A DNA stretch of 64,000 nucleotides, taken from positions 34,313-98,312 of the forward strand of contig JAJDCD010000008.1 of the NCBI GenBank assembly GCA_029261035.1. Direction: 5' to 3'. The notes beneath the pieces were generated by a model. That model was given only the letters and a program-made list of their open reading frames with translations, did no database searches and was not told where the DNA came from. Positions 6,249-34,200 of the stretch are shown piece after piece. Position numbers and translations under genes: made by a program. How positions within the stretch are numbered: position 1 is the first letter of the stretch; each line of letters starts with the position of its first letter. This DNA comes from Candidatus Omnitrophota bacterium. Lineage in GTDB: Bacteria > Omnitrophota > Omnitrophia > Omnitrophales > JACROU01.

Positions 6249-7733
6249 ATGATTTCAAATAATAAGAAAGCGAGTTCAATGGACTTTAACTTATCGCAAA
6301 CTCAATCCCAAAAGCTTATTCTATCTCCTCAAGTTAGGCAATATTTAAAATTCCTACAGCTTCCCATTCAACAATTATCAAATGCTATTGAACAAGAAGT
6401 AACAGAAAATCCTGCTTTAGAAGAAACAACTCTCTTAAATGATGATCTAAATTCAGATGAAGAATTTAACCAGAATCAAGATTCTGAAGAGTCTAATAAG
6501 GATTCTACTTCTGAACTAGACTTTCAAGAAAAATTAGAAACTTTAGATAAATTAGATGAAAATTTAAAAGATTCCTTTTATCCAGATTTATCTAAATCTT
6601 CTTTTAGTAGTAGTAAAGATGAAGATGAAAAAAGAGACTACCAACAATCTTTAATTACTCAAGAAGAAACTCTAATTGATTTTTTAACTTTTCAAATTAA
6701 CACACTAACTATTTCTGATAAAGAACGCGCTCTCGCATTTGAAATTATAGGCTACCTAAATGAAGATGGCTATCTAACAACACCCATTGCTGAAATTGCT
6801 ACAGAAATTAATAATAGTTCTGAGAATATTGAAAAATGTTTGATTCATCTGCAAAACTTTGACCCTCCTGGAGTTTGCGCTCGTAATTTAAAAGAATGTC
6901 TGTTGATTCAGATCAACAGAATGAACACAGACACTCATTTAGCGAAAGTCATTGTTGAAGAATACATTTCTCTCTTAGAAAAAAAAGATTACATTAAATT
7001 ATCTAAAAAAACAAAAGCCTCTATTGGAAAAATAAAAGAAGCCTGTCTTCTTATTCAAAATTTAGAACCAAAACCAGGTCGAAGCTTTTATAAAAACGAA
7101 ACCCTTTCCGTCATTCCAGACGCTAATATATATATAGATTCTGAAACCGACGAACTAGTCATTGAAATGAATGAGGAGAGTTTACCTCAAATAAGAGTCA
7201 ATCATGATTTTAAAAGAATGCTCAAAGACAAGAATCTTGATGAAAAAACTAAAGATTACATTAAAAATAAAGTAAATGCTGCTTTTTGGACCATCAAAGC
7301 CCTTAGCCAACGTCAATCTACTTTAAAACAAATTACACACCAAATAGTAGAATCCCAAAAAGAGTTTTTAGAGAAAGGCTTCTCTGCTTTAAAGCCTCTT
7401 CGACTAAAAGACATAGCTAAGTTAATTGGAGTTCACGAATCAACAGTATCTAGAGCAATACAAGGAAAATACATTCGGACAACTCAAGGAACAATTCCAT
7501 ACAAAAGCTTTTTTTCGACCCGAATGGAAAGTCTAGAAGGGTCAGAATCTCAAAAAAGTGTCTTAGAAAAAATTAAACGTATCGTTCAAAAGGAAAACCC
7601 ATCCAAACCTTTCAGCGACGAGCAATTAGTAGAATTACTTAAAAGCGATGGGATTAAAGTGGCGAGAAGAACTATTGCTAAATATAGAGGGATCCTAAAA
7701 ATACTCCCTTCATACCTTAGAAAACATCATTAA
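6249..7733 (+). CDS. rpoN: RNA polymerase sigma-54 factor
   Basis: Q/L-rich region I (LSQTQSQKLILSPQVRQYLKFLQLP), an acidic region II, an HTH (HESTVSRAI) and the C-terminal RpoN box ARRTIAKYRG. Confidence 0.9.
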   Translation: MISNNKKASSMDFNLSQTQSQKLILSPQVRQYLKFLQLPIQQLSNAIEQEVTENPALEETTLLNDDLNSDEEFNQNQDSEESNKDSTSELDFQEKLETLDKLDENLKDSFYPDLSKSSFSSSKDEDEKRDYQQSLITQEETLIDFLTFQINTLTISDKERALAFEIIGYLNEDGYLTTPIAEIATEINNSSENIEKCLIHLQNFDPPGVCARNLKECLLIQINRMNTDTHLAKVIVEEYISLLEKKDYIKLSKKTKASIGKIKEACLLIQNLEPKPGRSFYKNETLSVIPDANIYIDSETDELVIEMNEESLPQIRVNHDFKRMLKDKNLDEKTKDYIKNKVNAAFWTIKALSQRQSTLKQITHQIVESQKEFLEKGFSALKPLRLKDIAKLIGVHESTVSRAIQGKYIRTTQGTIPYKSFFSTRMESLEGSESQKSVLEKIKRIVQKENPSKPFSDEQLVELLKSDGIKVARRTIAKYRGILKILPSYLRKHH

Positions 7734-9646
7734 TTGCTCGGCTTAAGGAAAACCTTTCCTAATTGATTTCTTCCTTCATCATCAATATCAAAAAATAAGA
7801 TTAATTTGGCCTCAGTACCGTCTTGGTCTTTATCATGTACCGCTAGAGAAAGTTTGAAATTCTTGTTAAGATTAGGGTCTACATTTATTAAATCCCAAGG
7901 GATTCTTGCTTCAACAATGTAACCTTCTTGATTCTTTAGAACAGAAGCTTTAAATCTAGATTTTTCTAACCTACGTATACCATGAGGCCACAACCATGTT
8001 TTAGGCTGGTCTCCAAATTCACTGACAGCGAAGCCAAACTGAAAGTCTTTTTTACTTCCCCACTCAAACCCATTTCCATCGGGATCAATAAAAAGTTCCA
8101 ACAGGTCATCTTTGTGAATATTTTCTTTAGATTCTAATGCAAGCACATTTTGATCCACAACGTCAGCATAGACATATAAAAACTCCCAGTCCCAAGAAAA
8201 TGAATAATTAAGATTAAGATCCTTTTCGTCCGTTATTGTCCCAAATTCAAGATGAGTTTCTTTATCTAAAGAAAACCCGACTACACCTTTCCAGTCAGAA
8301 GCATCACCATCTATTTTCTTTTTACCTCCGTAAGAGATTTCCATTTGAGTAGCACTAAAATCTTGCGCCTCCAACTCAATACTTCCTTCAGAAAAACCAA
8401 TTAAATTTAAAGCTTTTTGGATAAAATTCAGTTGCATAAAATTATTCCAGACAAATTGATCTTTATAGTTCTGTATCATAATTAACATAGGGCCTAAATC
8501 AATAGCTAAAACGTAATCAGACCTCCAGTTTATCTCCAAATTGAAAGAATCTGAAAAACCATACCTTCCCCAGAGTAACTTTTTATAATTCTGATATAGT
8601 TCTTGAGCAAATTCAATAGACAAATCAGGAGTAAAGACAATGGAACTAATAGCTGCAGTAGGAGCAACAGTACCATCATGAAGTGCTTTTCCAGGTCTAG
8701 CGCCATAAGCTTGGTACCCCGAAGGCCCATCAGAAGCTGTTAACCCCCATATTTTAGAAGAGTAAGTTTTGTAACTATTACTTTGCTCTATGCAAAACTC
8801 TCTATTTGCTAAAGTAGCTAATCGTGAATTTTCAAAATAGTCTGCAAAACCATCATTTTTATTTCTAAAATCAATCCAACAATGAGAGTACTGGTGAGTA
8901 AATAGAGGAGGTGATGCAATTAAAGTGTAATCTTTATATGTCCTTACTTTTCTTTTTATTCCCTTCCATACAGATGGATCAACATTCATCGTTGGAGATG
9001 AAATCGCTAAAAAGTATAAAATCATGTTCTCATCGTAATGAGACCACCTTTCTTTCAAGAAGCCACTTCTAGGCTTCCACCCCATAGACAGAGCATTCCC
9101 TGAATTCAACATCCATGAGAAGTCCACACGGCGATAAATTTCATTCGCGATTTCTTCAACTTCAGTTCCTTTAAAATATTCGGAAGAGAATAGAGCCCCT
9201 GCTAAGAATAAAGCGGTATCAATACTTGATAATTCACAATTCCATAGCCTCTTACCTGTTTTCATATCCACAAAATGATAATAAAAACCATGTACATTTT
9301 CCATATCATCTTTAAAAAATTTAAGAGTTTTTAATGTTCTATCATAAGCTTCATTTTTTGTAATCCAGCCATTTTCAACCCCAATAGGGTACGCCGTTAA
9401 AGCAAATCCAACCGCAGCGATACTTGCAACACTAAAGGTTCCAGCCTTAAAGTTATAAGCACGATCAGGAATTAAACCATTTTCAGTGTTAGCTTCATGC
9501 CAAAAATAATTGAATGATTTTTTCTGGATTAAGTTGAGCAACTCATCATTTGATAGTTCTTGAGCATAAGCACAGGGGAGCAAAATGTTAAAAGAGAAGA
9601 GAAGGAAAAAAAATGAGAGAAGTATCCGCTTGCTAATATAATTCAT
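7730..9646 (-). CDS. secreted glycoside-hydrolase-like protein (six-hairpin glucoamylase-like/DUF3131-like N-domain) with C-terminal CBM9-like domain
   Basis: Signal peptide (MNYISKRILLSFFFLLFSFNILLPCAYAQ). N-domain resembles the putative-glucoamylase family (FNYFW...NGLIPD). The C-terminal about 200 aa (DGDASDWKG...LYVYADVVD...IDPDGNG) resembles CBM9/DOMON-like modules. The CDS call is solid; the function is a guess. Confidence 0.45.
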   Translation of the reverse strand: MNYISKRILLSFFFLLFSFNILLPCAYAQELSNDELLNLIQKKSFNYFWHEANTENGLIPDRAYNFKAGTFSVASIAAVGFALTAYPIGVENGWITKNEAYDRTLKTLKFFKDDMENVHGFYYHFVDMKTGKRLWNCELSSIDTALFLAGALFSSEYFKGTEVEEIANEIYRRVDFSWMLNSGNALSMGWKPRSGFLKERWSHYDENMILYFLAISSPTMNVDPSVWKGIKRKVRTYKDYTLIASPPLFTHQYSHCWIDFRNKNDGFADYFENSRLATLANREFCIEQSNSYKTYSSKIWGLTASDGPSGYQAYGARPGKALHDGTVAPTAAISSIVFTPDLSIEFAQELYQNYKKLLWGRYGFSDSFNLEINWRSDYVLAIDLGPMLIMIQNYKDQFVWNNFMQLNFIQKALNLIGFSEGSIELEAQDFSATQMEISYGGKKKIDGDASDWKGVVGFSLDKETHLEFGTITDEKDLNLNYSFSWDWEFLYVYADVVDQNVLALESKENIHKDDLLELFIDPDGNGFEWGSKKDFQFGFAVSEFGDQPKTWLWPHGIRRLEKSRFKASVLKNQEGYIVEARIPWDLINVDPNLNKNFKLSLAVHDKDQDGTEAKLILFFDIDDEGRNQLGKVFLKPSN

Positions 9647-10565: not shown

Positions 10566-13301
10566 TTATTTCTCAATTTTCTCAGTTTTTTCTGAATAAG
10601 CTTTTTTAGCAAAATGTACAAGATCTCCAAGAATTTTATCAGAAAATTCTTTCTGCAAACTAGACTCGGTCAAAAGATCTTTCAAACCACACCTTCCCAT
10701 CAACACAATGCTACTGATACCATTCCAAAGATTTTTTGAGATAAAAATACTTTTTAACATTTCCTCAAATTTCAAATCCGTCCAAGAGTAATCTTTGATA
10801 CCTTGCTTGTGTATATTACTAACAGATTCAGCTCCATCCAAAACAGACAAAACAGGCTTCCTTAATTTAGGTTCTAACAAATTATCCAAAAGCTCAATTG
10901 CATTAGCTCGAATATAATCATTTTCATCAGTAAAACCCTGAAAAACGATTCGGATGTCTTCAGGTTCACATAAGAGCCCTAATAGAAGAAAAATTCGATG
11001 CACAATCTCATCCAACCTTTTTTCCTGAGCAATCTGAAAAGCATCCGTATCACTAAAAGTTTTCTCCATTTTCCACTGATAGCCACTCAAAAATTTAAGT
11101 ATGTTTTCATATTCATTAATCTGAGCTAATATTTCCTTTTTTATAGTCTTTTCGTTAAAAACTAATTCCAAATTCTCTACACGTACTTTATTCATTGTTT
11201 CTAAAGTTGAGTTTTTTAACTTTCCACTCACCTGAGTTAGTAGATTTTCTAAAATTGATACAATTTTTTGTTTGGGAATCATGCCTGCAATCTTAAATAA
11301 TTTTACGCGACAAGATGTAGTTAATTCATTATCTTTTAATAATTTTTCAATTTCTTGCACAAATAATTCTTCATCTAAAATTAGATCCTCCATCACTTCC
11401 ATAACTCCATCTGAAGCATCCACTGATATATAAGCTCTTAATTTATCTTCTATCGCTTGTCTTTTTACATCGTTTGCATTCTTAGAATTCGTTACTTGAT
11501 CGATAGATGAAAAATCACTTTTAATCCTCTTATAATTTTTCCTCAAACCTTCAAACTCTTCCACAGACATACTTTCAGCATTTAAAACTAAAAATAAAAA
11601 GGCTACTTTTTGGATTAATGGGTATCGACTAGATAAATATTCTTTCATATCTGCTTCATTTGATTTTTTTGTACAATCTTCAAGGAACTGCATGTAAACT
11701 TCAATATCAATTAAATTTATTGCTTTTATTAAAATTCTTAACTCTTCTTCAATCTGAAGATCAAGCGGGTCCAAATCGTTAGGCTTAACAATAAGTTTCA
11801 GTTCCTTTTTTGCAACATCAAGCCTTTCTAGATCAAGCGAAACAAACAATTCACTGTTTTTACTGCTCTTAACATAATTTAAGAGTTTCAACACAAGGAA
11901 CCGGTCAGATAACTCAGAAGAAAGAAAAGTGTTCATATAACTATTAAGCAAAGCTGATTCACTTGATTTAACATCAATATGAGATATTTCCGTTTTCTCA
12001 CGATAGAGTTGTTTTCTTAACTCTTTTAAGTACTCCTTCTTCATCACAAAAGCAACAAACAACCAAACTCCAATCAAGAAAACAGTTAGGTAACTTAAAT
12101 TTTTCAAATCAGTAATTAAAAACCCCGTTACAAGCAATATCAACAGACTTCCAAATGCCTTAGCTGATCGATATCCAACCATATCTATAAATGGTTTAAC
12201 CTTATATCTAATTTCTCGGCTAATTGGCAAATACAGAACTTCTTTAGTTGCCTGATTTAGGGAGTAATTCAAACTACCGTCATACATCATAGTGAAAACA
12301 GCTGACCATAGTAACGGATGAATTAATATAGCAATATTTCCAAACAAAAGTCCTAGAGGTAAAATTAATAGTGCAACCTTCACTCCCAAATGTCGTAAGA
12401 CTTTGCTCGTTAGAAAAAACTGTATGGAAAAGGAAATCATATTTAACGTTCCCCAAAACCAACCAAAAAAAGCAGTCTTTCCCTCCAACCCAATAAAAGA
12501 AGTTTGAACTATTCCGTTAAACTGATATTCCACTAACGTTGAAACAAGTTTAGCTAAGAAAACAACGGAAAGAAGCATAATTAAATATTTAGATTTCCAT
12601 AAATCTTTAAATAAAACCTTCTCCCCTTTTTGCTCCTTCTTTTCATTTTCTTCTACTTCAATATCGTGATGCAACTTACTTTCAGGACTTGAATTTTCTC
12701 TTTTCCATACCCACTGAATTAGTATTACAGAAAAAAACAGAACGCACGCGGCTACAAGTAGCAAATTTATGGTTCCTACAGACTTCACCAAAATTCCAGT
12801 GACATACCCCCCCGTCATCCCGCCTAAAATGCCCCCACTACCTATAAAACCGAAAAGACGCTTCGCCTCTCTCGTATTAAAAATGTCATTCGACAGTGTC
12901 CAGAATTGTGTCACACTCATTATAGAAAAAATAGATACCCAAATATAAAAAATAGCTGGAAGAGCCCAAAAGTTCACATATGTCAACAACCACCAGAATG
13001 CAAAAATATTAGAAATAAAGAACAGAACTGTTCCTATCAATAACCTATTTTTTCTTTTTTTATTAGTAAAGCGAACATAAACAGAAACAACGCCCATAAG
13101 TACTAGAATTGTTATAAACCATACATACGGAAGGTTCTCAAACCCTGATTTTTCAAGAAAGATAGCACTGCGGATAGGCTTTAGGATATAAAGACAGGTA
13201 ATGGTAATGAAGAAATACACAAACATAAGAAGAGTTTTACCCCACTCTTCTCTTCTTATCTTAATAATTGGTTGAACTAGACGTGTAATTAAATTAAGCA
13301 T
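10566..13301 (-). CDS. TLC-family (ATP/ADP translocase-like, NTT-like) membrane transporter fused to a C-terminal HEAT-like repeat domain
   Basis: The N-terminal about 430 aa has roughly 12 TM helices with TLC-family landmarks (IIKIRREEWGKTLLMFVYFFITITCLYILKPIRSAIFL; FWTLSNDIFNTREAKRLFGFIGSGG, cf. Rickettsia Tlc EAKRFYSMFGLL). The C-terminal about 480 aa is soluble and helical-repeat-like. Confidence 0.65.
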   Translation of the reverse strand: MLNLITRLVQPIIKIRREEWGKTLLMFVYFFITITCLYILKPIRSAIFLEKSGFENLPYVWFITILVLMGVVSVYVRFTNKKRKNRLLIGTVLFFISNIFAFWWLLTYVNFWALPAIFYIWVSIFSIMSVTQFWTLSNDIFNTREAKRLFGFIGSGGILGGMTGGYVTGILVKSVGTINLLLVAACVLFFSVILIQWVWKRENSSPESKLHHDIEVEENEKKEQKGEKVLFKDLWKSKYLIMLLSVVFLAKLVSTLVEYQFNGIVQTSFIGLEGKTAFFGWFWGTLNMISFSIQFFLTSKVLRHLGVKVALLILPLGLLFGNIAILIHPLLWSAVFTMMYDGSLNYSLNQATKEVLYLPISREIRYKVKPFIDMVGYRSAKAFGSLLILLVTGFLITDLKNLSYLTVFLIGVWLFVAFVMKKEYLKELRKQLYREKTEISHIDVKSSESALLNSYMNTFLSSELSDRFLVLKLLNYVKSSKNSELFVSLDLERLDVAKKELKLIVKPNDLDPLDLQIEEELRILIKAINLIDIEVYMQFLEDCTKKSNEADMKEYLSSRYPLIQKVAFLFLVLNAESMSVEEFEGLRKNYKRIKSDFSSIDQVTNSKNANDVKRQAIEDKLRAYISVDASDGVMEVMEDLILDEELFVQEIEKLLKDNELTTSCRVKLFKIAGMIPKQKIVSILENLLTQVSGKLKNSTLETMNKVRVENLELVFNEKTIKKEILAQINEYENILKFLSGYQWKMEKTFSDTDAFQIAQEKRLDEIVHRIFLLLGLLCEPEDIRIVFQGFTDENDYIRANAIELLDNLLEPKLRKPVLSVLDGAESVSNIHKQGIKDYSWTDLKFEEMLKSIFISKNLWNGISSIVLMGRCGLKDLLTESSLQKEFSDKILGDLVHFAKKAYSEKTEKIEK

Positions 13302-13445: not shown

Positions 13446-15128
13446 TTACTTACTTTGATGCCGGATTCCGGATAGTTTGTAAGCCCCCGTCTCAGAGGAT
13501 TTCTCAAAACTTAAATCTACAGAAGGGTTCCACTTTGATTCTTTTTGATTCCATTTACTAATTTCAGCTATTAGCGACTCAGATGATAAGGCAAAATCAA
13601 TGGCAGATGAAGCAAAATCCATAGAAGAAACTAACTTTCTCTTCTTAGAAGAAGCATCCCAAATTTGAAGTTTATATTTAACAGGTTCAGAACTCAATTC
13701 ATAAAACTTCTCTAAATCCGTAAAAGAGACACTTAATGAATCCCCGCTAACAGAGACTTTAAAATCATCCAAAGGAGAAACTACAGAAAACCAATACGCT
13801 CCAATTAAACGTTGCCTTTCTAACAATGTCTTTAACAAATAAGCTTCCGCATCTGGATTAGAATACTTTGCCACCGAAACTAACTGCTCAAGATCTTTAG
13901 GTTTAAATTTCATTAAAATCTTAGCAGCCCAAAAAGCATCAGACAAATCCATATCTTGAAAAGAATAATGCTGAAATGCAGGCTTCCAATCAGCTGGATC
14001 AAATTCAATATTGTCATAATAACCTATTGAAGGGTACTTCACTAAGGGCTCCGAAGATGCCAATCTTTTCTCCCAGCGTCTTTTATAAAGACCCAAACTC
14101 AAAATTCTTTTTGAAATCACTTCATAATCAAAGAAGAATTCATTCCCCAAATTAGCTTCCTTTTCACGCGTTCCAGCGCTTCCAAAAGCTGAGCCAAAGT
14201 CCAAAAAGTAATACTTTAAATATTTTTCGCCATTTTTTTCAATCAAAGTAGATAAAGTATTTCCCTTCCTTAAGTCCACATTATTGACCCAACTGCTTAA
14301 TACAGGAAGAGCTCTAAATTCCCTTCTATTTATATGACGATAAAAATCATTAGGGTCATCTTTTCGGTAAAAATCATAGGGCATAACTCCCTTTATATCT
14401 CCCCCTATTTTAAGGCTTGCAGAAGCTCTAACAGTACCGTCAGCCAGTCTCTCAATTTTATTCATCAAATCTCTAATTCCAGCATCGGTTAATTTCATTT
14501 TAAATCCGTCACTGTTATAAAACTGAGCATCTTCAGCTGCTGTTAAAATAGATGGGTCGAAGTAAACAACCCGATACTGAGGAACATTATAACCAGCAGC
14601 ATGGTAAATTCTACTCGCAATAGCTTCAGCTCCTGAAGCAAGCTCATTATTTCCAATGGGATCAAATTTAATTAAATACTCATCTCCTTTAGAATCTCTC
14701 ATAAAAAATCCAGGGTTAATTCCATCTACCTTACCCTTTGTAATAACCCAAGGCCCTTTAGTTTCGGGTCCGTCATTTATTTCAGGACCTTGCAATAAGT
14801 CAGAAACAGAATAACCATTTTTTCCAATTCTATTTTCAAAAAACTGCGAGTCTGTCACTTCATCATAAATGTTCACATTCAGAGCCGAAGCATCTCTGCC
14901 TAGTAATTTGTTAGCTGTTCTACCTAAATAAAACCACTGTATCAGCCTATCATAAAATCCATCATTAAAGAAATCTGAATACATACTTGTTTTATAATTC
15001 TTTAAATTATCAACTTCTTGAGTCGACAATGCGTGAATGTGTTCTTTTGCCAGAGCAGAAGGAACCCCACTAGTAAATACAAATACAGCTAATAAAAATG
15101 AAATTGTAAAATTTTTAATTTTCGTCAT
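13446..15128 (-). CDS. secreted hypothetical protein with protein-kinase-like catalytic motifs
   Basis: Signal peptide (MTKIKNFTISFLLAVFVFTSGVPSALA). Motifs YLIKF (Lys154), NELASGAEAIASRIY (possible alphaC Glu), VDLRKGN (286-291, HxDLKxxN-like catalytic loop) and FLDFGSAFG (DFG at 310-312) sit at kinase-compatible spacing. Inference only. Confidence 0.35.
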   Translation of the reverse strand: MTKIKNFTISFLLAVFVFTSGVPSALAKEHIHALSTQEVDNLKNYKTSMYSDFFNDGFYDRLIQWFYLGRTANKLLGRDASALNVNIYDEVTDSQFFENRIGKNGYSVSDLLQGPEINDGPETKGPWVITKGKVDGINPGFFMRDSKGDEYLIKFDPIGNNELASGAEAIASRIYHAAGYNVPQYRVVYFDPSILTAAEDAQFYNSDGFKMKLTDAGIRDLMNKIERLADGTVRASASLKIGGDIKGVMPYDFYRKDDPNDFYRHINRREFRALPVLSSWVNNVDLRKGNTLSTLIEKNGEKYLKYYFLDFGSAFGSAGTREKEANLGNEFFFDYEVISKRILSLGLYKRRWEKRLASSEPLVKYPSIGYYDNIEFDPADWKPAFQHYSFQDMDLSDAFWAAKILMKFKPKDLEQLVSVAKYSNPDAEAYLLKTLLERQRLIGAYWFSVVSPLDDFKVSVSGDSLSVSFTDLEKFYELSSEPVKYKLQIWDASSKKRKLVSSMDFASSAIDFALSSESLIAEISKWNQKESKWNPSVDLSFEKSSETGAYKLSGIRHQSK

Positions 15129-15138
15129 ATCTTATATC

Positions 15139-16470
15139 CTAAAAAGCTGTCTTTGTTTTAAAGTAAAATTCTGTTCCTTCACCACTTTTAGCCACTTCTA
15201 TATTTAAGAAGGTTTTGCTTGCTACTCTAAATCTAAAAGCGCTTCCATAACTGAGTTTGGAGTTTGATATTTCAAAGTCGTCTCCCTCACCAAATACAGA
15301 CCCTAAATCCAAAAATGGGGCCATATCTAATCTGAAAATACGGTACTTCCAAATATTGTACCGATACTCCATATTCATCCAAAGGGCATTATTATCGAAA
15401 AAACGATTATATTGGTACCCTCTTATTGTTTCAGAGCCCCCTAAGCGAGCCATATCAAAAAATGGCAATGTCCCATTAGCAACCTTATCATTAAATTCCC
15501 CACCCACTTTTAAACCGATAACACTATCCGTCTTATATACCTTAAAATACTGCGCCGCACTGAACTTATATTTCATGTACTCATAATCAGCCCCATCAAC
15601 TCCTTTGTTGTAATAAACGGATGCAGACCTAACACCGCCACGAGTTGGAAAACCTTTGTTATCTCTATCATCATGAACAATTTCTAAACCGACAGTATGA
15701 TAATCGCCTCCATTAACACCCGATAAGTTTTGCTCAATGAAAAAGTCCTGTATATCCCTTTTTCCCGTATCTTGTCCATTTGATATTTTAACATCGTTAA
15801 ATGCATACATTGCTTCGACATTTAAAGAACCCCAGATCAAGTCGAATTCCTTACCTACTTTGGTATCGTACAGCATTCTCTGATAATCATAAGTAAAACT
15901 ATTGGCTCTCGAAGACCTTCGTCCAACCCCAAAAAAATCTTCTTGAGGTCTGCTTTCGAATAGAAATGTTTGATTAGCATAAACACCTGTATTCAAAATA
16001 TTCTTTAAAACAAGCTGGCCTGCGTTTTCATTGTAAAGCTGAGAACTAAGCCCTGTCCAAGCTTTAAATCCAGCGCTCTCCACAAAAGGAGATAATTTAA
16101 TCAAATCATCTTTTACGACAGTAACTCTGCCCCCAAGACCACCCGAATGCTTAGATGCTTTCCCTGATAAATAGATTCCCTTATCGGTTAATTCTTTCAC
16201 TAGCCAGATAGTTTTATCTTCAACATGATACTTATCTACCCAATTCAATACATTATCCGCTAAATATTTGGTTAATTCTAAGGGGTAAGCTGGAAGAGAA
16301 AGGATTCTTTCTGTTAAAGTTATTTTTTGTTTTTGATATGTCCCTGTTCGCAGATCCTCTGTATAGCGATCATAAGTTAAATCTTGCGCGAATACAGAAA
16401 CTGAAGGCAGAAATATAGATATGAACAAAATACAAAATAATTTAGTCCATTTTTGCAAATAATTCGTCAT
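15139..16470 (-). CDS. Omp85-family (bacterial surface antigen) outer-membrane beta-barrel protein
   Basis: Signal peptide, LGGSETIRGYQYNRF (Omp85 GGxxxxRGY motif), alternating beta-strand pattern and C-terminal ...FYFKTKTAF ending in Phe. Confidence 0.7.
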   Translation of the reverse strand: MTNYLQKWTKLFCILFISIFLPSVSVFAQDLTYDRYTEDLRTGTYQKQKITLTERILSLPAYPLELTKYLADNVLNWVDKYHVEDKTIWLVKELTDKGIYLSGKASKHSGGLGGRVTVVKDDLIKLSPFVESAGFKAWTGLSSQLYNENAGQLVLKNILNTGVYANQTFLFESRPQEDFFGVGRRSSRANSFTYDYQRMLYDTKVGKEFDLIWGSLNVEAMYAFNDVKISNGQDTGKRDIQDFFIEQNLSGVNGGDYHTVGLEIVHDDRDNKGFPTRGGVRSASVYYNKGVDGADYEYMKYKFSAAQYFKVYKTDSVIGLKVGGEFNDKVANGTLPFFDMARLGGSETIRGYQYNRFFDNNALWMNMEYRYNIWKYRIFRLDMAPFLDLGSVFGEGDDFEISNSKLSYGSAFRFRVASKTFLNIEVAKSGEGTEFYFKTKTAF

Positions 16471-28238: not shown

Positions 28239-31200
28239 TTACGCTGCTTGTGCAACAAGTCGTTCTGCTTCAATAGATAATCTTAAATTTTCTAGCAAAT
28301 CAAAAACAAGATGACTTCCCTCTAATCGAATACCCTTAACACCTAAAGTATCTTCAAACCACTCAGGATGAATCACAACACCATCGCTAGCAACTTTGGC
28401 TCTAGCTAAAACTAATTTAAATACAAAGGCAGCTAAACCTTCCCTGATTTCCCCATCCGCCTTTGAGTAACTCGCTGTCATATACTCTTCAGGTATTTTA
28501 GATTCCATCTCTCCCCATACGCCCTCAGTCATTATTCCAATTTTCAGACTATCAGAACGATCACTAAAAGTTTGTCTTCTAGCTTGTTTTTTAACAAAGC
28601 GAATATTAGTTTTTCCGTGAAGAACAGATCCTTTCCTCATCCATTCTGAAGCTTTAATCCTCTCATCATGATCTCTGGGGTTATATAGAATATATAACTG
28701 ATCTCTCTCTTTCATTTGCTGTATCCATTCTGGAAACGACTTCATGAGCCCTTCAAAAGAACTTAAATCTAAAATCACATCTACAACCTGATCCCCTATA
28801 AAAATATCTGAGTAATTCACCTTAATCTGATCCAAATCTCTTCTATCAACACTCCACATCAAAGTTGCTATCTCCATCGCACGAGTGAGAACCTCAGGCA
28901 TTTCCCGAGTAGATTGATATAACTGCCAAAAAGAACGTTTATACTCCTTACTTAGCTGAACTCCAAGAGCTGTTTCCAAATATTCAGCCAATAAAACTTC
29001 AGAAGAAAAATCTTCTTGCAGCAAGTGCGTTAACACAACATCCAATGAGAGAGTTTCACCTAAACTTCTGGCCAAGACTTCTCTATCAAGCCAAGGAGAT
29101 TCATCTTCTGGCACCACAAGTGTTTCAGAGGATTGACTCACTGCAAAAAATAGCTTGTTCAGTTGTTGAAACAAAACCTCCCAATCATCAGCACCATGTC
29201 TCTCAAAAACTTCTAATACCTCTTCAATTTTTCTAAAATCTTTATTCATTCCAATCTTTCCCAGAACTAACATCATTTTTCTTTTAGCTTCTTCAGAAAT
29301 ATCGTTTCTACTAAAGATTATCGTTAGAACCTCTTTTATTTGGGTCTCAATATTTTTTATTTGATTTTCATTAAACTCTAAAGGAATTTGGTATAAAAAG
29401 AAATAAGCTAAAAACAACCATTCTTTTGCTGTAGTGAACAAGTTTAAAAGATCCATACGGATGATATTTCCATTCAATCTTCCCTTACTAATACCGCTAC
29501 TTAAACTATTAAGAATATTTAAATAATTCCCTGGTAAGAATAAAAGAGCCCACTCTTTCTTAAAAAAATAATTATTTAACTCTGAATCGGATAATAGATA
29601 AAATTGGTTTAAAGCATACATCCAATTTTCTTCATTTAAACCTACAAATAATTCTATTAAATCAATATCCGCAAAGAGATTTTTTTCTGGGTTACTAATA
29701 GCCTCAGTAATAATCTTTTTAAATTCTAATGCTTCAAAATGAACAGGCGTTGATCGGGGCATTTTTCGAATCATTTCTAAGTAAATCATGATCCAACGTT
29801 CTATAAATTTTTCATCCATATTGGGATTTGCTTCTAAAAATGAAAAGAAAACATCCTTATAAACAGCCTGTGTCACAACGGGGTATTTCAGTTCAAACTC
29901 TTCAAATGAGAGTCCTAAACGTTCTGGTAAAATAGACGCTTCATAATCTTCTTCAAACCCTAAACTTTGACCTTGAATAGTTTCAAGATTGTTTTTGGTC
30001 AATTCAGCTGAAACTCCAATAACCCCGCCCAAACTAGTGGCATCCACAATTTCCCGACCCGATCCACTTAAGCTAGAACTTCCTCCTCTGGCTCCAGGAG
30101 AATAAACACCTTGTATAATATTGGATAAAACTTTCTTCATTGTTTCTGGCAATTTTGAAAGCTCGTTGTCTTTGAGTGAAAAGGAGAATTGAGACCCATA
30201 CACTTCTATCACATCCTCTGTTCCGGTCCCTAAACCTATACCAACATAATCCACAACAGAACCACCGACTCTTCCATTCTTCTTTCTTAACTCTTCCAAA
30301 AAGGCCATTACTTGATCTCTTGTACCCATACCATCTGTAATGACAAATACGTAGTGACGCTCTCCACCTACTTTTTGAATATCTTCCATTGATTTAAGAA
30401 TCGCGCTAAAGTCATCAGTGCCTCCATGAGCACCAATAGATCGGTATAAATCTTCTATTAAATATTCTTTTTCTCTTCGCGTTCCGTAAGACTGAGGCAC
30501 CGCATCAGCACCCTCTCTTAAGTCTTCTGGCTCTGTTTTTTGTCCCTTAAAACGCTTATGAAGGTGCGTTGAGCTACCAAAGCCTCGAACGGCAAAATCA
30601 ATACCAAGGTTTTGCAACGTTTCCATAAACACCACAGCTCCTTTAAGGGCGTTGTAACCCGCCATCCCTGCATGGGTGGGTTTATTGGCCTCAGAGTCTG
30701 CTGGAGTCCCTGACATACTGCCACTTTGGTCAATGAGCAGGGTGAATTTAATATCCTTCTTCTGTGGTAACACCTTTTGCTTATAGAACCTCATGTCCAC
30801 AAAGCCTCGAGCCATCGAATTCATTAACCGCCTAATATCAATGCGGCCTTTTTTCATTCCCGTAACTTCTTTAGGTCTTAAGGAGTTTTGAATCAAATCT
30901 CTTAAGTAGCCCGTTAAAGTCATAATAGTTCCTCCTAACCAACCCATCAGGTTGTCTCTTAGAGACCTAGGCTCGTTAATAGAAGCATCTTTCATAGCAT
31001 CTTGGTAATCTGTAGAATCTTCTTTAGTTCTATCTTTGGCATTTCCTGCAGCACCTTTTTTAATTTCATCTACTATCTTTGATTTATCTTTTTCTCCCAA
31101 AGCTTCCCAAATCTTTTTCCAATCCTTATCTGAAATTTTCTTTTTGCGCTTATCTTTAATTTTCCCTTCCACTGTCGCTCCCTCGCCTGAAGAATCTCCT

Positions 31201-34200
31201 GTAGAAGGTTGCTCAGGCATATCCCCTTCAATAATTAAATCTCCTTTAATTGTGATCTTTCCTTTGCTCGGTTTCCCTCCAGGAGGAGCTCCTGGCCCTA
31301 TATGAACATCTCCTTCGATAATAAGGTCTCCATCCCCAGACTCTCCTTCACCCTCTCCCTGCCCTTGCCCTTGACCTTGACCTTGACCCTGCCCTTGACC
31401 ACCCTTACCTTTATCTTTTTTCTGATTTTCCTGAGCATCTCGAACAGCCCATTTATAAACAACGGGCATAACAATGTCTTTGATCATCTCACCTTGTTCA
31501 CGAGCTAATTCTATTATTTTCACGTCCCCCTCTCTAAGTTCCGACTGAAAACGAGGAAGTCCTACATCGTCAAAGGTAACCGGAATCTTCGCGAATACAC
31601 TTCTCATTTGTGCTCGTTGATATTTACCTAGAATTTCATCTCTGTCTCCACCTTTATAGTGGTATCGATCCTTATCCCATGTCCCAAAAACTCCCGTAGC
31701 CAACAATTTCTCAACATCCTTTCTAAGGTCCGCATCCTTCTCACCAATAATTTCTAAAATTCTTGGGAACTTATCCTTAGAATCATCAAAATCTCCTCTT
31801 TTTGCTAACCACAACATTAGATTACTTAAGATGGATGAATAACTATGGTCTGTCTTAAATAGCTGTTCAACATCTTCCGTCCTAAACACAGCCTCATCAT
31901 TCATTCGTTTCAAAAAACGTGCGGCTCCTTTAAAACGTAATTTTGCCCAGTTCTCTATTCGACCATCTTCAATTATGTTGAATACGGTAGCTCCTAAAGA
32001 TGTATCTTTTAGAAATTCATAAAAAAGAGAAGAGTACCAAGTAGCATAGCGATGCATTGCTTCATGAATCGCTGTTCCTAGTACAGACTCTAAACTTTCC
32101 TCCATTAGAGCGCTTGCCGGAACAATCACCATGTTTTTACCTCTGTTAAATGCCCAATTCGCATCTTTTCCTGTTCTCACTTCTACATTCACTGTTCCTT
32201 TACTTACAGTTTCAAATGCTTGAACAAATATTTCAGCACGCTGTTCAGCACCCATCAACTTCCACCGACTGTCATCCGGTAAATCTTCTAATTCATCTGC
32301 ATTTTCTAATTCTTGGAAGGGGCGGTCACTCAAGACATCCATAGAAGCCATAAGCACCTCTTCTGGGTCCTTTAATGAACTCGATTCTGAATCTAATGAA
32401 GTCATAGAAGGCTGAATCATTTGAGGCTCTAATTCCGATCTCTGTTCAGGACTTTTAGGATCTGAAGGCTCTTCTAAAAGAACAACATCTTCTTGCTCAT
32501 CCAAATTAATTTCTTTGGACTGAACCAGTTTAAGTACACGTCCCACCAAAGACTGAATTCCTCCTAACATTATTTGATACATCTCATCCCTTCTTCGTTG
32601 ACTCCGAACCCAAACTTCTCTAAAACGACTCCTTAAAGCTGGAGACAACCCTACGCGCCCTGCATTCATCCCTGTACGACCTTCTGCAGGGTTCATTGTC
32701 CCAAACAATCTAAAATTAGGGTGGATATTTACATAAACACCTCCTTTTTCCAATATGCTCATCGTCCCACGATCAAAATATTCATTCAAAACTTCAATAA
32801 CACCTGCATCAGCCATGTTAATTTCTTCTAATACAAGAGCATACCCTCTTTCCATTGCTTGAATTAATACTCCTTTTTTAAATTCCATAGTCCCTGTGGA
32901 TTCATCTAAAACAAAACTCCCTATCAAACTTTCAATCGTAGCCGCTCCTAAGGATACGGACATATAAGGCCAATAAAGTTCACGAGCAATGTCCCCAATC
33001 ATTTCTGTTTTTCCACCACCCGAATGCCCTGTTAGGAGTACAGGCTTTGATTTATGAATCTCCACAGTCGAACCTTCACTATCTCTTACCTTTACAGTGC
33101 CTCCATCTCTAAAACCTTTTAATATTTGAGACCTCACATTACCCATAGATTTAATTTCCACCAATTTATCAATACGCTCTGCTTGAGAACGGAAATACTT
33201 GTCTATAACAGATTCTAAAATCAATTTATTCTCAGGAAGGTTTTGCAACATACCACCATAGAACTCTGAAATTATTTTTTTGTACCTTTCCTTCAAAGGA
33301 AGGTCACTATCCCTATCACGAACGGCTTCATCCATGACACGAGTCATAGAGCTGTCATCAATGGGGTTTAATCGGCCGCCTTCGTTTGAAACAAAAACCC
33401 CTTCCTGAATTAAAGCATTCACCTCAATATGGAAGGAATTTAACATATCATTTAAGTCTAATTTCTTTACCTTTACTCCATTTAACTCAATCCACTCCCC
33501 TAAATCATTTTGAGTTTGTCGAATTTTATAACCATCTATGTAAATATCTTCAAAAGCAACAACAGGCTTCAGATTACTAGTGACCGCTTTAGATGCTCTG
33601 CGAAAATCACTCATTTCAAGGGTTTTTGAACCCCTTTCAAAAAACAGTCTATTCCCTTCAATTAACTCTAAGCTGAAAGTTTGAAACCTTTCTAAAAAAG
33701 TCTTTTCATCCCCATCTCCACTAGACTCTTTTCGAAACATCAATCCAAAAGCTTGATTCGTTGAAAGAAAAAAGTCAGGGTTGACTGCTCTTAATTTCTC
33801 CTCCTGACTTTCAAGGTACCGAAATTTTAAATCTGGATCAACATCACTTTTTGAGTCATCCCATTCAATACTTCTTAGTAAATTCAAGGCCCCTTCTACT
33901 TCTAACGCAAAATTAGCTGCTTGTTTTTCAATAATTTCTTCAATTGATACTTCAGCTCTACCATCATCCGATTTCATTACTTCTTGAAAAGCATTATTAT
34001 TTTCTAAACTTTCATCGAAAGACTGAATTAAGAAACGCTCAAATAAAGCATTAAGTTTATTGATATTATTATTGCGGAACGGGTCATCTGAATTTGTTTG
34101 TGATAATAATCCATAATATTCTTGATATCCTGTCTTAAGAATTAAATCAAACAAAGACTCTTCTTCAGACCCTTCTTTAGAATATTGCAAAGCATCATGA

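Follow-up and report, generated by a model that had tools for sequence, protein, structure and literature searches.

In the usual view the periplasm contains no ATP, and the inner membrane marks the limit of kinase-type regulation. What would a Sec-exported protein with kinase-like catalytic motifs do beside an outer-membrane barrel, and from where would it obtain its nucleotide? The locus that raises this question lies in a 64-kb window, the whole stretch of Omnitrophota DNA that was analysed. It joins an exported enzyme with a predicted complete kinase active site, here termed KIN, to a private barrel and a nucleotide exchanger and, in related loci, to exported phosphatases. Such a combination is suggestive of a bacterial system, so far undescribed, in which nucleotides would be used beyond the cytoplasm; no description of a KIN/Omp85 system was found in the searchable literature. 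The preferred reading, to which a probability of roughly 0.45 was assigned, is an envelope kinase that an Omp85 barrel would hold in place and an ATP/ADP exchanger of the inner membrane would fuel.

Organization of the locus and export of KIN

The preliminary description gave the correct coordinates for the KIN and Omp85 open reading frames, both of which are on the minus strand. The KIN gene (positions 13446-15128) encodes a Sec-exported kinase-like protein of 560 amino acids that belongs to an unannotated family; the Omp85 gene (15139-16470) encodes 443 amino acids. The Omp85 gene is transcribed first and KIN follows in the same operon, with a spacer of 10 nt (15129-15138, minus strand, from sequence reading) between the stop codon of the former and the start codon of the latter. 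An AGGA Shine-Dalgarno-like sequence before KIN overlaps the Omp85 stop codon, which makes co-transcription and coupled translation of the two genes likely, and there was no terminator-like site between them. A giant open reading frame is also present in the same window.

The signal peptide that had been noted in KIN was read from the sequence as MTKIKNFTISFLLAVFVFTSGVPSALA, followed by KE (residues 1-27; positions 15048-15128, minus strand), with cleavage predicted between ALA and KE. A signal-like N-terminal hydrophobic segment was present in 82 of 94 near-full-length homologues, and approximately 25 of these 82 signal-bearing proteins had a lipobox. The other 12 appear to be mostly N-terminally truncated gene calls.

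The family is large, with no fewer than 563 species genomes and 4567 clusters at 50% identity. Its members are named 'hypothetical' in every source, and Pfam and NCBIfam have no model for it. A second profile search, carried out against a word-indexed protein database, recovered no remote relative that was either new or annotated. One protein in which a GT4 glycosyltransferase is joined to KIN (P0240) has a lipobox in mid-protein; it is probably a read-through gene call and was given no value as evidence.

KIN is predicted to have a protein-kinase-like fold

The AlphaFold2 model of KIN (pLDDT 90.6, pTM 0.90) proceeds from strands beta1-beta3, which carry K154, through a helix at residues 163-178, further beta strands and a helix at 274-281 to a loop (283-290), a beta hairpin (291-308) and D310-F-G. 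When the model was compared to the PDB with Foldseek, the best matches were kinases, in agreement with the fold that had been proposed. Fam20C (4kqa/4kqb) was the top match (E approximately 4e-5, precisely 3.6e-5; probability 1.0), Helicobacter pylori CtkA (3akk/3akj) was matched with an E value of 4e-5, a TM-score of 0.51-0.55 on the target and a probability of 1.0, and DrFam20C1 was also among the best matches. The viral matches included PI3K/PI4K and Ser/Thr kinases. For the region of the kinase-like core (residues ~120-450; positions 13779-14771, minus strand), which was delimited from the model, Foldseek and HipA_2 matches, no competing fold was found in the PDB by Foldseek. Residues 453-557 (positions 13458-13772, minus strand) form a separate, all-beta, FnIII-like sandwich in the model, with many Foldseek matches to FnIII and cytokine-receptor domains (TM-scores of 0.6-0.7 on the target).

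Profile matches to HipA were recurrent and sub-threshold. HipA_2 matched 10 of 40 family members (best E value 7e-5) and HipA_C matched six of 40; the best scores were 22.6 bits for HipA_2 (PF20613; P0012) against a gathering threshold of 27 and 20.3 bits for HipA_C (PF07804; P0016) against a threshold of 30.5, and the KIN protein of the window scored 13.7 bits. The HipA_2 and HipA_C matches fell into two collinear blocks, residues 128-199 on profile positions 4-75 and residues 254-310 on positions 100-157, which cover the Lys region of the N-lobe and the catalytic loop with the DFG of KIN. Alignment of the family profile to Escherichia coli HipA (MG1655) with hhalign gave only noise (probability 0.4%), for which a single-sequence template may be too weak, and nothing useful was obtained from PDB sequences searched with the single KIN sequence or the family profile. 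Given the sub-threshold scores and the negative hhalign result, KIN is a distant relative of HipA at most, and not a member of that family.

The motifs YLIKFD (K154), VDLRKGN and FLDFGSAFG (D310) are all present in KIN, and their conservation was determined in an alignment of 173 non-identical homologues. The putative beta3 lysine in YLIKF, K154, was retained in 169 sequences and the DFG aspartate at 310 in 171. The catalytic-loop residues were numbered one too high in the preliminary description, as D286 and N291; they are D285 (171/173) and N290 (167/173), in the pattern D285-x-[RK]-x-x-N290 with D-x4-N spacing, and in the window the codons for D285-L-R-K-G-N290 occupy positions 14259-14276 (minus strand). 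Residues 287 (R or K, 163/173) and D156 (170/173) were also conserved. Thus K154, D285, N290 and D310 are each found in at least 96% of the 173 sequences; the exception is the proposed helix-C glutamate, for which conservation was only moderate to poor (E162 in 136 and E168 in 116 of the 173). Because they are conserved across so many non-identical homologues, the KIN motifs are far beyond chance. The alignment also revealed a family-specific N-terminal motif, N-V-N-x-x-D-E-V-P-x-S-x-[WF]-F-x-N-R (residues 86-100; positions 14829-14873, minus strand), in which E90 was conserved in 167 and R100 in 171 of the 173 sequences and which was modelled with a pLDDT of approximately 92.

On the evidence of the model, KIN has a protein-kinase-like superfold of the HipA/PI3-4K/Fam20 type with conserved catalytic residues. 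It may bind nucleotide and transfer phosphate.

The partner is a POTRA-less Omp85 barrel with an obligate gene pairing

Assignment of the neighbouring gene to the Omp85 family was borne out by Pfam (PF01103, E = 8e-18, 65 bits against a cut-off of 24) and by the top Foldseek matches of its AlphaFold2 model, which were the BamA and TamA barrels (E approximately 2e-12). In this model (pLDDT 78) helices are followed by 16 strands. Ahead of the barrel lie a signal peptide with cleavage after VFA, a tail modelled with low confidence and, at residues ~52-96, a helical hairpin; no POTRA unit (beta-alpha-alpha-beta-beta) was present in the model. The lid-lock motifs, RGY in loop 6 (R350) and FxDxG (D388/G390), were found together with a C-terminal Phe; among 93 partner proteins R350 was conserved in 100%, D388 in 89% and G390 in 93%. 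The BamA model TIGR03303 gave 48 bits, compared to its cut-off of 297. A YDxY motif in the N-terminal tail, which 15 sequences had suggested as a docking or acceptor site, was only 48-77% conserved in the 93 proteins and was dropped.

Loci were collected by a search with a 10-sequence KIN alignment, and many of them came from related Omnitrophota MAGs. The Omp85 gene directly adjoined KIN in 85 of 87 copies, in several phyla, and the remaining two copies were at contig ends. It was immediately upstream and on the same strand in 84 of the 87; in Sandaracinus (L004) and in L086-L088 it was downstream. The gene pairing is obligate. The fold, motif and neighbourhood results together support the earlier proposal of an exported kinase-like protein with an outer-membrane partner.

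It is very improbable that this adjacency is merely inherited synteny without function and that the kinase-like motifs are a chance resemblance. Relatedness among the many Omnitrophota MAGs would favour such an explanation, but the pair was also found in Zixibacteria, KSB1, Calditrichia, Latescibacterota, Ignavibacteria, Poribacteria, Gemmatimonadota and one myxobacterium, and, amid differing flanking genes, it was kept where the gene order is inverted, where the pair is duplicated in tandem and in a fusion. The fold and the motif conservation of KIN are, in addition, independent of synteny. The pairs were duplicated as units in L061, L072 and L084, and pairwise distances between KIN proteins were correlated with those between their Omp85 partners (r = 0.87). 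A nearest-neighbour comparison of the tandem duplicates gave the same partner for one of six copies, the sampled relatives being too distant. In the fusion protein (P0250) KIN occupies residues 35-581 and a partner-type Omp85 domain residues 599-999 (hhalign probability 97.8%); it is the sole example and could be a frameshift or gene-calling artefact.

An obligate, co-inherited pairing would also be expected if KIN were a pseudokinase scaffold, a non-catalytic or regulatory accessory to a specialised Omp85 machine for the assembly or export of other proteins or lipoproteins of the envelope. Lipoproteins are the partners of BAM-type barrels, the BamA-RcsF entry 6t1w was among the structural matches of the Omp85 model, and the weak conservation of the helix-C glutamate is in keeping with this explanation. 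However, pseudokinases usually lose the catalytic Asp, the Asn or the DFG Asp, each of which is present in at least 96% of KIN sequences, and the linkage to nucleotide-transporter and phosphatase genes described below would be left unexplained. This explanation was judged to be quite improbable.

A nucleotide transporter and exported phosphatases recur near KIN

A third recurrent partner, missed in the preliminary description, is a TLC/NTT-type nucleotide transporter of 911 amino acids, the gene for which (positions 10566-13301, also on the minus strand) follows KIN downstream at a distance of 144 nt. It was identified by PF03219 (E = 1e-19, 71 bits against a cut-off of 21), with an additional match to MFS_1, and has approximately 10 hydrophobic segments in residues 1-420 and none after. 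Its place among the NTT-HEAT fusions (Major, Embley and Williams 2017), which join a TLC/MFS membrane domain to a C-terminal HEAT-repeat domain, is indicated by full-length homology to the Pfam-confirmed NTT-HEAT protein of L002 (27% identity over 790 amino acids, E = 6e-75), in which HEAT_2 was matched at E = 8e-25. Its C-terminal soluble region is homologous to the HEAT-repeat domain of that protein; Pfam detected no HEAT repeats in the window transporter itself at E < 0.1.

A TLC gene was encoded in 60 of 85 loci, which differed in gene order and in phylum. It was adjacent to the KIN-Omp85 pair for 47 of the 87 copies and within 10 kb for 61. For the other 26 it was not found in the locus, and several of these had full 10-kb flanks; the transporter is therefore not obligatory in cis. 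In L002 and L026 the transporter gene was followed by a cNMP-binding gene, an arrangement already described for NTT-HEAT transporters (PMC5381601). NTT-HEAT proteins are widespread in free-living bacteria, have no known role and also occur in cyanobacteria and Chlamydiae (PMC5381601); no KIN was seen in either of the latter groups. The same paper reported no function for them and no link to a kinase or Omp85 protein, and linkage to KIN and Omp85 is a new context for the family.

Exported phosphatases of the PAP2, Metallophos and PF04185 families also recurred near KIN. A Metallophos protein with a lipobox (LSGC) was encoded in 10 loci, in 15 loci the first or second gene downstream of KIN encoded PAP2, and the gene order in L086 was PAP2 - TLC - PF04185 - PAP2 - KIN - Omp85. 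A gene of 413-423 codons between KIN and PAP2 was considered as a diverged Metallophos gene and rejected (BLASTP E = 1). PADLOC gave no hits for KIN, Omp85 or the transporter, and a defence-system interpretation was rejected.

These neighbours would also fit a scavenging pathway, in which the barrel admits nucleotides or organophosphates from outside, KIN serves mainly as a nucleotide-binding or trans-phosphorylating protein of the periplasm, the phosphatases free phosphate and the NTT imports nucleotides. No Omp85 barrel is known to serve as a solute channel, and this counts against such a pathway. PAP2, Metallophos and PF04185 proteins are typical phosphate-scavenging enzymes and nucleotide import is the canonical NTT activity (PMC5381601, PMC10066038), but the phosphatases were found in a minority of loci only and the full catalytic set of KIN, including the base D285, is conserved, which is more than a binding protein needs. 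Scavenging was considered improbable.

Comparison with known systems

HipA-like kinases, CtkA included, share with KIN a D-x-x-x-x-N catalytic loop and a downstream Mg-binding Asp. In contrast to HipA-like kinases, KIN has a Sec signal or lipobox, its own N-terminal motif, an FnIII-like domain and an Omp85 partner, and there was no toxin-antitoxin context at KIN loci. Fam20C, the Golgi casein kinase, resembles KIN in having a kinase fold and a non-cytosolic workplace; it works in a compartment that must obtain its ATP via a transporter. It differs in being eukaryotic, in its low similarity (10-12% identity, TM-scores of 0.25-0.33) and in having no barrel partner, and homology beyond the shared superfold is not claimed.

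In two-partner secretion (FhaC/FHA), as here, an Omp85-superfamily barrel gene lies beside the gene for a Sec-exported partner in an operon, and the lid-lock motifs, RGY in loop 6 and FxDxG, are retained in the barrel described here. A TpsB protein carries two POTRA domains, and its TpsA cargo an N-terminal TPS domain (NPNL/NPNGI motifs). By a two-partner or type V-like route the barrel could translocate KIN across the outer membrane; KIN would then be exposed at the surface or released and would act as an effector kinase on a host, on prey or on a neighbouring cell, while the NTT separately imported host ATP in the manner of an 'energy parasite', as proposed for Omnitrophota. This was regarded as rather unlikely. 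The barrel gene precedes that of the exported partner, as in tpsB-tpsA operons, but the barrel lacks the POTRA domains that TpsB proteins use to recognise cargo, and KIN has no TPS-like domain, there being no Pfam match to a TPS or haemagglutination domain. CtkA, one of the two best structural matches of KIN, is reported to act as an effector kinase of this kind for H. pylori, the passenger-then-barrel order of the fusion P0250 resembles that of type Va/Vd proteins, and the giant open reading frame of the window also counts in favour of this route. Omnitrophota have been proposed to be host-dependent, with their translocases read as ATP scavengers (PMC10066038). The KIN family, however, is also found in free-living lineages such as Sandaracinus and Gemmatimonadota, approximately a quarter of its members are lipoproteins that have no obvious acidic surface-export signal after the Cys, and the tight linkage to exported phosphatases and the transporter argues for one shared local pathway.

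A precedent for an Omp85-linked enzyme that stays in the periplasm is provided by PlpD (type Vd), in which a 16-strand Omp85 barrel follows an enzyme domain in the same passenger-then-barrel order as in P0250 and the patatin-like domain has been demonstrated to lie in the periplasm (PMC11116518). PlpD, a lipase, consists of one polypeptide that includes a POTRA domain, whereas the present system has a kinase fold, lacks a POTRA domain and is nearly always encoded by two genes. The 'noNterm' Omp85 proteins form a subfamily (Heinz and Lithgow 2014). In Leptospira (LIC12252/12254/12258) the gene for such a POTRA-less 16-strand barrel likewise precedes one that encodes an exported protein or lipoprotein (PMC11358297, PMC4104836). 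There, the partners belong to the adhesin-like lipoproteins, and the barrels carry DUF5982; the Omp85 protein of the window had no Pfam hit to DUF5982 and has an N-terminal helical hairpin.

Proposed role of KIN in the envelope

In the preferred reading, the kinase held on the barrel, Sec would export the KIN of this window in soluble form and roughly one in four of the homologues as a lipoprotein. The HipA/CtkA/Fam20-like kinase domain of KIN, with beta3 Lys, catalytic Asp and Mg-binding Asn and Asp, would be followed by the FnIII-like domain, and the barrel would most likely dock or anchor the protein on the periplasmic face of the outer membrane rather than at the cell surface, much as the PlpD barrel does its patatin domain. 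The TLC/NTT(-HEAT) exchanger at the inner membrane would run outward, exporting ATP and taking back ADP; this direction is proposed because kinase-fold enzymes need nucleotide and the periplasm makes none. Characterised NTTs import ATP, and none is known to export it. The exported phosphatases of related loci (PAP2, the Metallophos lipoprotein and PF04185) may reverse or process the modification. Linkage to PAP2 and tethering to the membrane speak for a lipid or glycolipid of the envelope, rather than a protein, as the putative target of phosphorylation.

If KIN is active, nucleotide-dependent chemistry in the bacterial envelope becomes directly testable, and NTT-HEAT transporters and POTRA-less Omp85 proteins, both of them orphans, would acquire a first functional context. 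The findings also bear on how host dependence is deduced from 'ATP/ADP translocase' genes in uncultured phyla. A broader and somewhat doubtful extension is that many diderms run a periplasmic ATP economy, in which the NTT exports ATP and retrieves ADP to fuel KIN, tethered at the outer membrane, while periplasm-facing PAP2 and Metallophos enzymes oppose the modification that KIN makes to a lipid or protein of the envelope. If so, this would be a bacterial counterpart of Golgi Fam20C and its ATP carrier, NTT-HEAT would gain a function, and in candidate phyla, Omnitrophota among them, 'ATP/ADP translocase' genes would not on their own be markers of energy parasitism. One KIN member is encoded by Sandaracinus amylolyticus, a cultured organism, and experiments are therefore feasible.

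Gene organization of the locus

Three successive genes on the minus strand were found to encode a 443-aa Omp85-type barrel protein (15139-16470; PF01103, E 8e-18), the 560-aa kinase-like protein KIN (13446-15128), which starts 10 nt downstream, and, 144 nt downstream of KIN, a 911-aa TLC/NTT-type nucleotide transporter (10566-13301; PF03219, E 1e-19). The spacer between the Omp85 and KIN genes contained an AGGA Shine-Dalgarno-like sequence that overlapped the Omp85 stop codon, and a search for a terminator-like site between these two genes gave none. The G+C content of the window was approximately 35%, and its character is Omnitrophota-like: the nearest KIN homologues, with 45-54% identity, came from Omnitrophota MAGs.

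Motifs, export and predicted fold of KIN

KIN is an exported protein. As suggested in the preliminary description, a classical Sec-type signal peptide (ALA/KE) was found at its N-terminus; a signal-like N-terminus was present in 82 of the 94 near-full-length homologues, approximately 25 of the 82 with a lipobox, and the other 12 appear to be mostly truncated gene calls. An extracytoplasmic location is very likely. Conservation was scored in an alignment of 173 non-identical homologues. The proposed Lys in YLIKF (K154, within YLIKFD) and the proposed DFG Asp (D310, in FLDFGSAFG) were retained in 169 and 171 sequences, respectively. The predicted catalytic loop, VDLRKGN, was also present, but its key residues are D285 (171/173) and N290 (167/173) and not D286 and N291 as originally numbered; all four positions were kept in at least 167 of the 173 homologues. 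The helix-C Glu that had been postulated was much less conserved (E162, 136/173; E168, 116/173). Other conserved positions were D156 (170/173) and R/K287 (163/173). The family is further defined by near-invariant positions in three segments: an N-terminal motif, NVNxxDEVPxSxWFxNR (E90, R100), an RKDDPND...H265xxRRE segment just ahead of the catalytic loop and a DAxWAAK motif, in which D397 and W400 were each found in 173/173 sequences.

An AlphaFold2 model of KIN, based on a 40-sequence alignment, was confident (pLDDT 90.6, pTM 0.90). Its secondary-structure order was kinase-like: three strands of the N-lobe, the last reaching K154, were followed by a long helix (163-178), more strands, a helix (274-281), the loop with D285 and N290, a beta hairpin and D310. 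A separate beta-sandwich was formed by residues 453-557. Consistent with the fold that had been suspected, the best PDB matches in Foldseek were kinases, namely Fam20C/Golgi casein kinase (4kqa/4kqb, E ~4e-5) and the Helicobacter pylori kinase CtkA (3akk/3akj, E 4e-5, TM 0.51-0.55 on the target), with zebrafish Fam20C1 also among the top matches. The other PDB matches were FnIII domains, fitting the C-terminal sandwich, and PI3K/PI4K and Ser/Thr kinases were in the match list obtained with viral models. Judged from the model, a kinase-like fold is highly probable, and KIN combines this fold with a complete catalytic set.

Both the sequence and the structure of KIN were modestly similar to those of known kinases. 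None of the Pfam and NCBIfam models reached its threshold with KIN. Sub-threshold matches to HipA_2 (10 of 40 family members, best E 7e-5) and HipA_C (6 of 40) were collinear and fell in two blocks, KIN 128-199 (N-lobe) on profile positions 4-75 and KIN 254-310 (catalytic loop and DFG) on positions 100-157. The KIN family profile matched no PDB sequence, and hhalign gave no meaningful match to Escherichia coli HipA. KIN can at most be distantly related to the HipA/CtkA group, and it lies outside every curated family.

All 96 word-indexed homologues were named hypothetical and had no Pfam domain. In a full HMMER scan over 1.84 billion representatives, 4567 clusters were matched at E <= 1e-3, of which 1642 reached E <= 1e-30. 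Relatives are encoded in no fewer than 563 GTDB species genomes. These taxa include Omnitrophota, Zixibacteria, KSB1, Calditrichia, Latescibacterota, Ignavibacteria, Poribacteria and Gemmatimonadota, together with a cultured carrier, the myxobacterium Sandaracinus amylolyticus. In one 955-aa family member (P0240), a GT4 glycosyltransferase domain (residues 82-396) was joined to KIN; it was rejected as a fusion because a lipobox is still present in mid-protein, and it is probably a read-through gene call.

Pairing of KIN with a POTRA-less Omp85 barrel

The claim that the neighbouring gene encodes an Omp85-family barrel was upheld by the PF01103 match and by BamA and TamA barrels as the best structural matches (E 2e-12). 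Three Omp85 hallmarks were kept, a loop-6 RGY motif (R350 in all 93 sequences), an FxDxG motif (D388, G390) and a C-terminal Phe. In the model (pLDDT 78), a signal peptide and a low-confidence tail precede a helical hairpin (52-96) and 16 strands. No POTRA unit was present in this model, and the protein was therefore grouped with the POTRA-less "noNterm" Omp85 proteins. Proteins of this class are uncharacterised; in Leptospira their genes, too, are followed by lipoprotein genes (PMC11358297).

To assess neighbourhood conservation, 85 loci were collected with flanks of up to 10 kb where the contig allowed, and all ORFs were searched with HMMs of the window proteins. Since L002 duplicates L037, pairing was counted on 84 loci with 87 KIN genes. 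An Omp85 gene was adjacent to KIN in 85 of these 87 copies; in 84 it directly preceded KIN on the same strand, and in many of these it overlapped the KIN start; in Sandaracinus it was immediately downstream. The other two copies were at contig ends. Three divergent loci outside this set (L086-L088) likewise had the Omp85 gene directly downstream. The genes flanking the pair varied among lineages. Pairwise distances of KIN and Omp85 were correlated (r = 0.87), and in three loci (L061, L072 and L084) the pairs were duplicated as units, giving tandem Omp85-KIN-Omp85-KIN arrays. The tandem pairs of L061 and L072 were very divergent (KIN 60%, Omp85 75-77% different), which points to old paralogous pairs kept side by side. 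A 999-aa protein (P0250) joined KIN (residues 35-581) to a region (residues 599-999) whose match to the partner-Omp85 profile extended from the helical hairpin as far as the C-terminal Phe (hhalign probability 97.8%, E 1e-12). This fusion could be an assembly artefact; it belongs to a clade with the gene order KIN then Omp85. KIN is genetically inseparable from the POTRA-less barrel, and in all likelihood the two form a functional pair. That their synteny is meaningless is extremely improbable.

Linked transporters and phosphatases

A third partner, not recognised in the preliminary description, was the TLC/NTT transporter, whose gene occurred in 60 of the 85 loci. It directly adjoined the pair for 47 of the 87 KIN copies and lay within 10 kb for 14 more; for the remaining 26, no transporter gene was found in the collected locus. 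Its position, 5' of the Omp85 gene or 3' of KIN and at times on the opposite strand, is evidence against simple inherited synteny. The L002 NTT-HEAT fusion is a full-length homologue of the 911-aa transporter (E 6e-75), whose hydrophobic segments all lie in residues 1-420. NTT-HEAT fusions are widespread in free-living bacteria and are often followed by a cNMP-binding gene, as was also seen in L002 and L026; they have no known function, and a link to a kinase or Omp85 was not mentioned (Major et al., PMC5381601). NTT-HEAT proteins are known in cyanobacteria and Chlamydiae, where KIN was not seen. In several loci (L041:12856-17118, L071, L055, L081 and L027), two transporter genes followed KIN in tandem, encoding an NTT-only protein of ~440 aa and then an NTT-HEAT protein of ~940 aa.

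In 20 loci (for example L007:1194-1718 and L009:8184-8651) a DUF5329 protein (PF17263, ~175 aa) was encoded directly after the transporter gene, regardless of the side of the Omp85-KIN pair on which the transporter lay. This order held throughout the Omnitrophota loci. The window has no DUF5329 gene. The protein looks like a fixed transporter accessory; no mention of it was found in the searchable literature.

A PAP2 gene lay directly or one gene 3' of KIN in 15 loci, and a lipobox-bearing Metallophos protein was encoded in 10. In L086 the order was PAP2, TLC, PF04185 phosphoesterase, PAP2, KIN and Omp85, with overlapping start and stop codons. Genes for a nucleotide exchanger and for phosphatases that face the periplasm are frequently linked to KIN. 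Such linkage to a transporter, like the intact active site, argues against a role of KIN as a non-catalytic accessory in a specialised Omp85 machine, a reading that is distinctly improbable.

Between KIN and PAP2, Zixibacteria and Ignavibacteria loci encoded an unannotated protein of 413-423 aa (L026:11548-12789, L046:11548-12819) with an N-terminal hydrophobic segment and no Pfam match. It proved unrelated to the Metallophos protein that occupies this position elsewhere. Canonical Hanks-type Ser/Thr kinase genes (Pkinase) were found a few kb from KIN in three unrelated loci (L003:1947-3491, L046:15998-17386 and L089:3680-5359), one fused to an AhpC/TSA domain; this may be coincidence.

Proposed function

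The reading that we favour, with a probability of about 45%, is that of an active envelope enzyme held on its barrel, supplied by the NTT and opposed by phosphatases. KIN would be a nucleotide-dependent transferase docked on its own barrel, on the periplasmic side of the outer membrane. A precedent is PlpD, in which the enzyme domain linked to an Omp85 barrel has been shown to lie in the periplasm (PMC11116518). The NTT would act as an ATP(out)/ADP(in) exchanger, a direction that high cytosolic ATP makes thermodynamically natural. ATP supply to KIN by this route is put forward tentatively; we know of no demonstration of ATP export by any NTT. The phosphatases would reverse or process the KIN product. 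The substrates of PAP2 enzymes are lipid phosphates on the outer side of the inner membrane, and this activity, together with membrane tethering, tilts our guess towards a lipid or glycolipid substrate. Counting against the favoured reading are the modest similarity of KIN to known kinases, the 26 KIN copies whose loci gave no transporter gene, and the NTT-HEAT proteins of cyanobacteria and Chlamydiae, groups in which KIN was not seen. The more far-reaching idea of a system dedicated to periplasmic ATP-dependent phosphorylation is less likely than not.

Omnitrophota translocases have been read as host-ATP scavengers (Seymour et al., PMC10066038). TPS-like secretion, with KIN as a surface or released effector and the NTT importing host ATP, is unlikely: POTRA and TPS domains are missing, KIN also occurs in free-living lineages, and phosphatase genes are linked to it. 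Scavenging of nucleotides or phosphate is an improbable role, as the catalytic base of KIN is fully conserved.

In agreement with the novelty originally claimed, no description of the family or gene set was found in the searchable literature, including a 2026 structure-based census of bacterial kinase-like families, and the gene set matched no PADLOC model. The envelope system proposed here joins two known kinds, the atypical kinase and the Omp85 barrel with a partner.

Other features of the window

Among ORFs of 200 aa or more, 30 of 31 were on the minus strand. GC skew was negative throughout (-0.07 to -0.36), and this lack of a sign change indicates that the whole window lies on one replichore with strongly co-oriented genes. 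A giant gene (28239-47642, minus strand) encodes 6467 aa in a single ORF. Between residues ~3400 and ~5050, Pfam matched no fewer than seven AAA_5 ATPase modules of the dynein/midasin type together with an MCM-like P-loop region, and the first ~3000 residues had no match; giant ORFs are a published feature of Omnitrophota (PMC10066038; bioRxiv 10.1101/2023.11.21.568195). A gene at 7730-9646 (minus strand) encodes a secreted protein of 638 aa that has a CBM9 domain and a putative glucoamylase domain (PF10091); synteny of this gene with the KIN locus was seen in L001, the closest relative.
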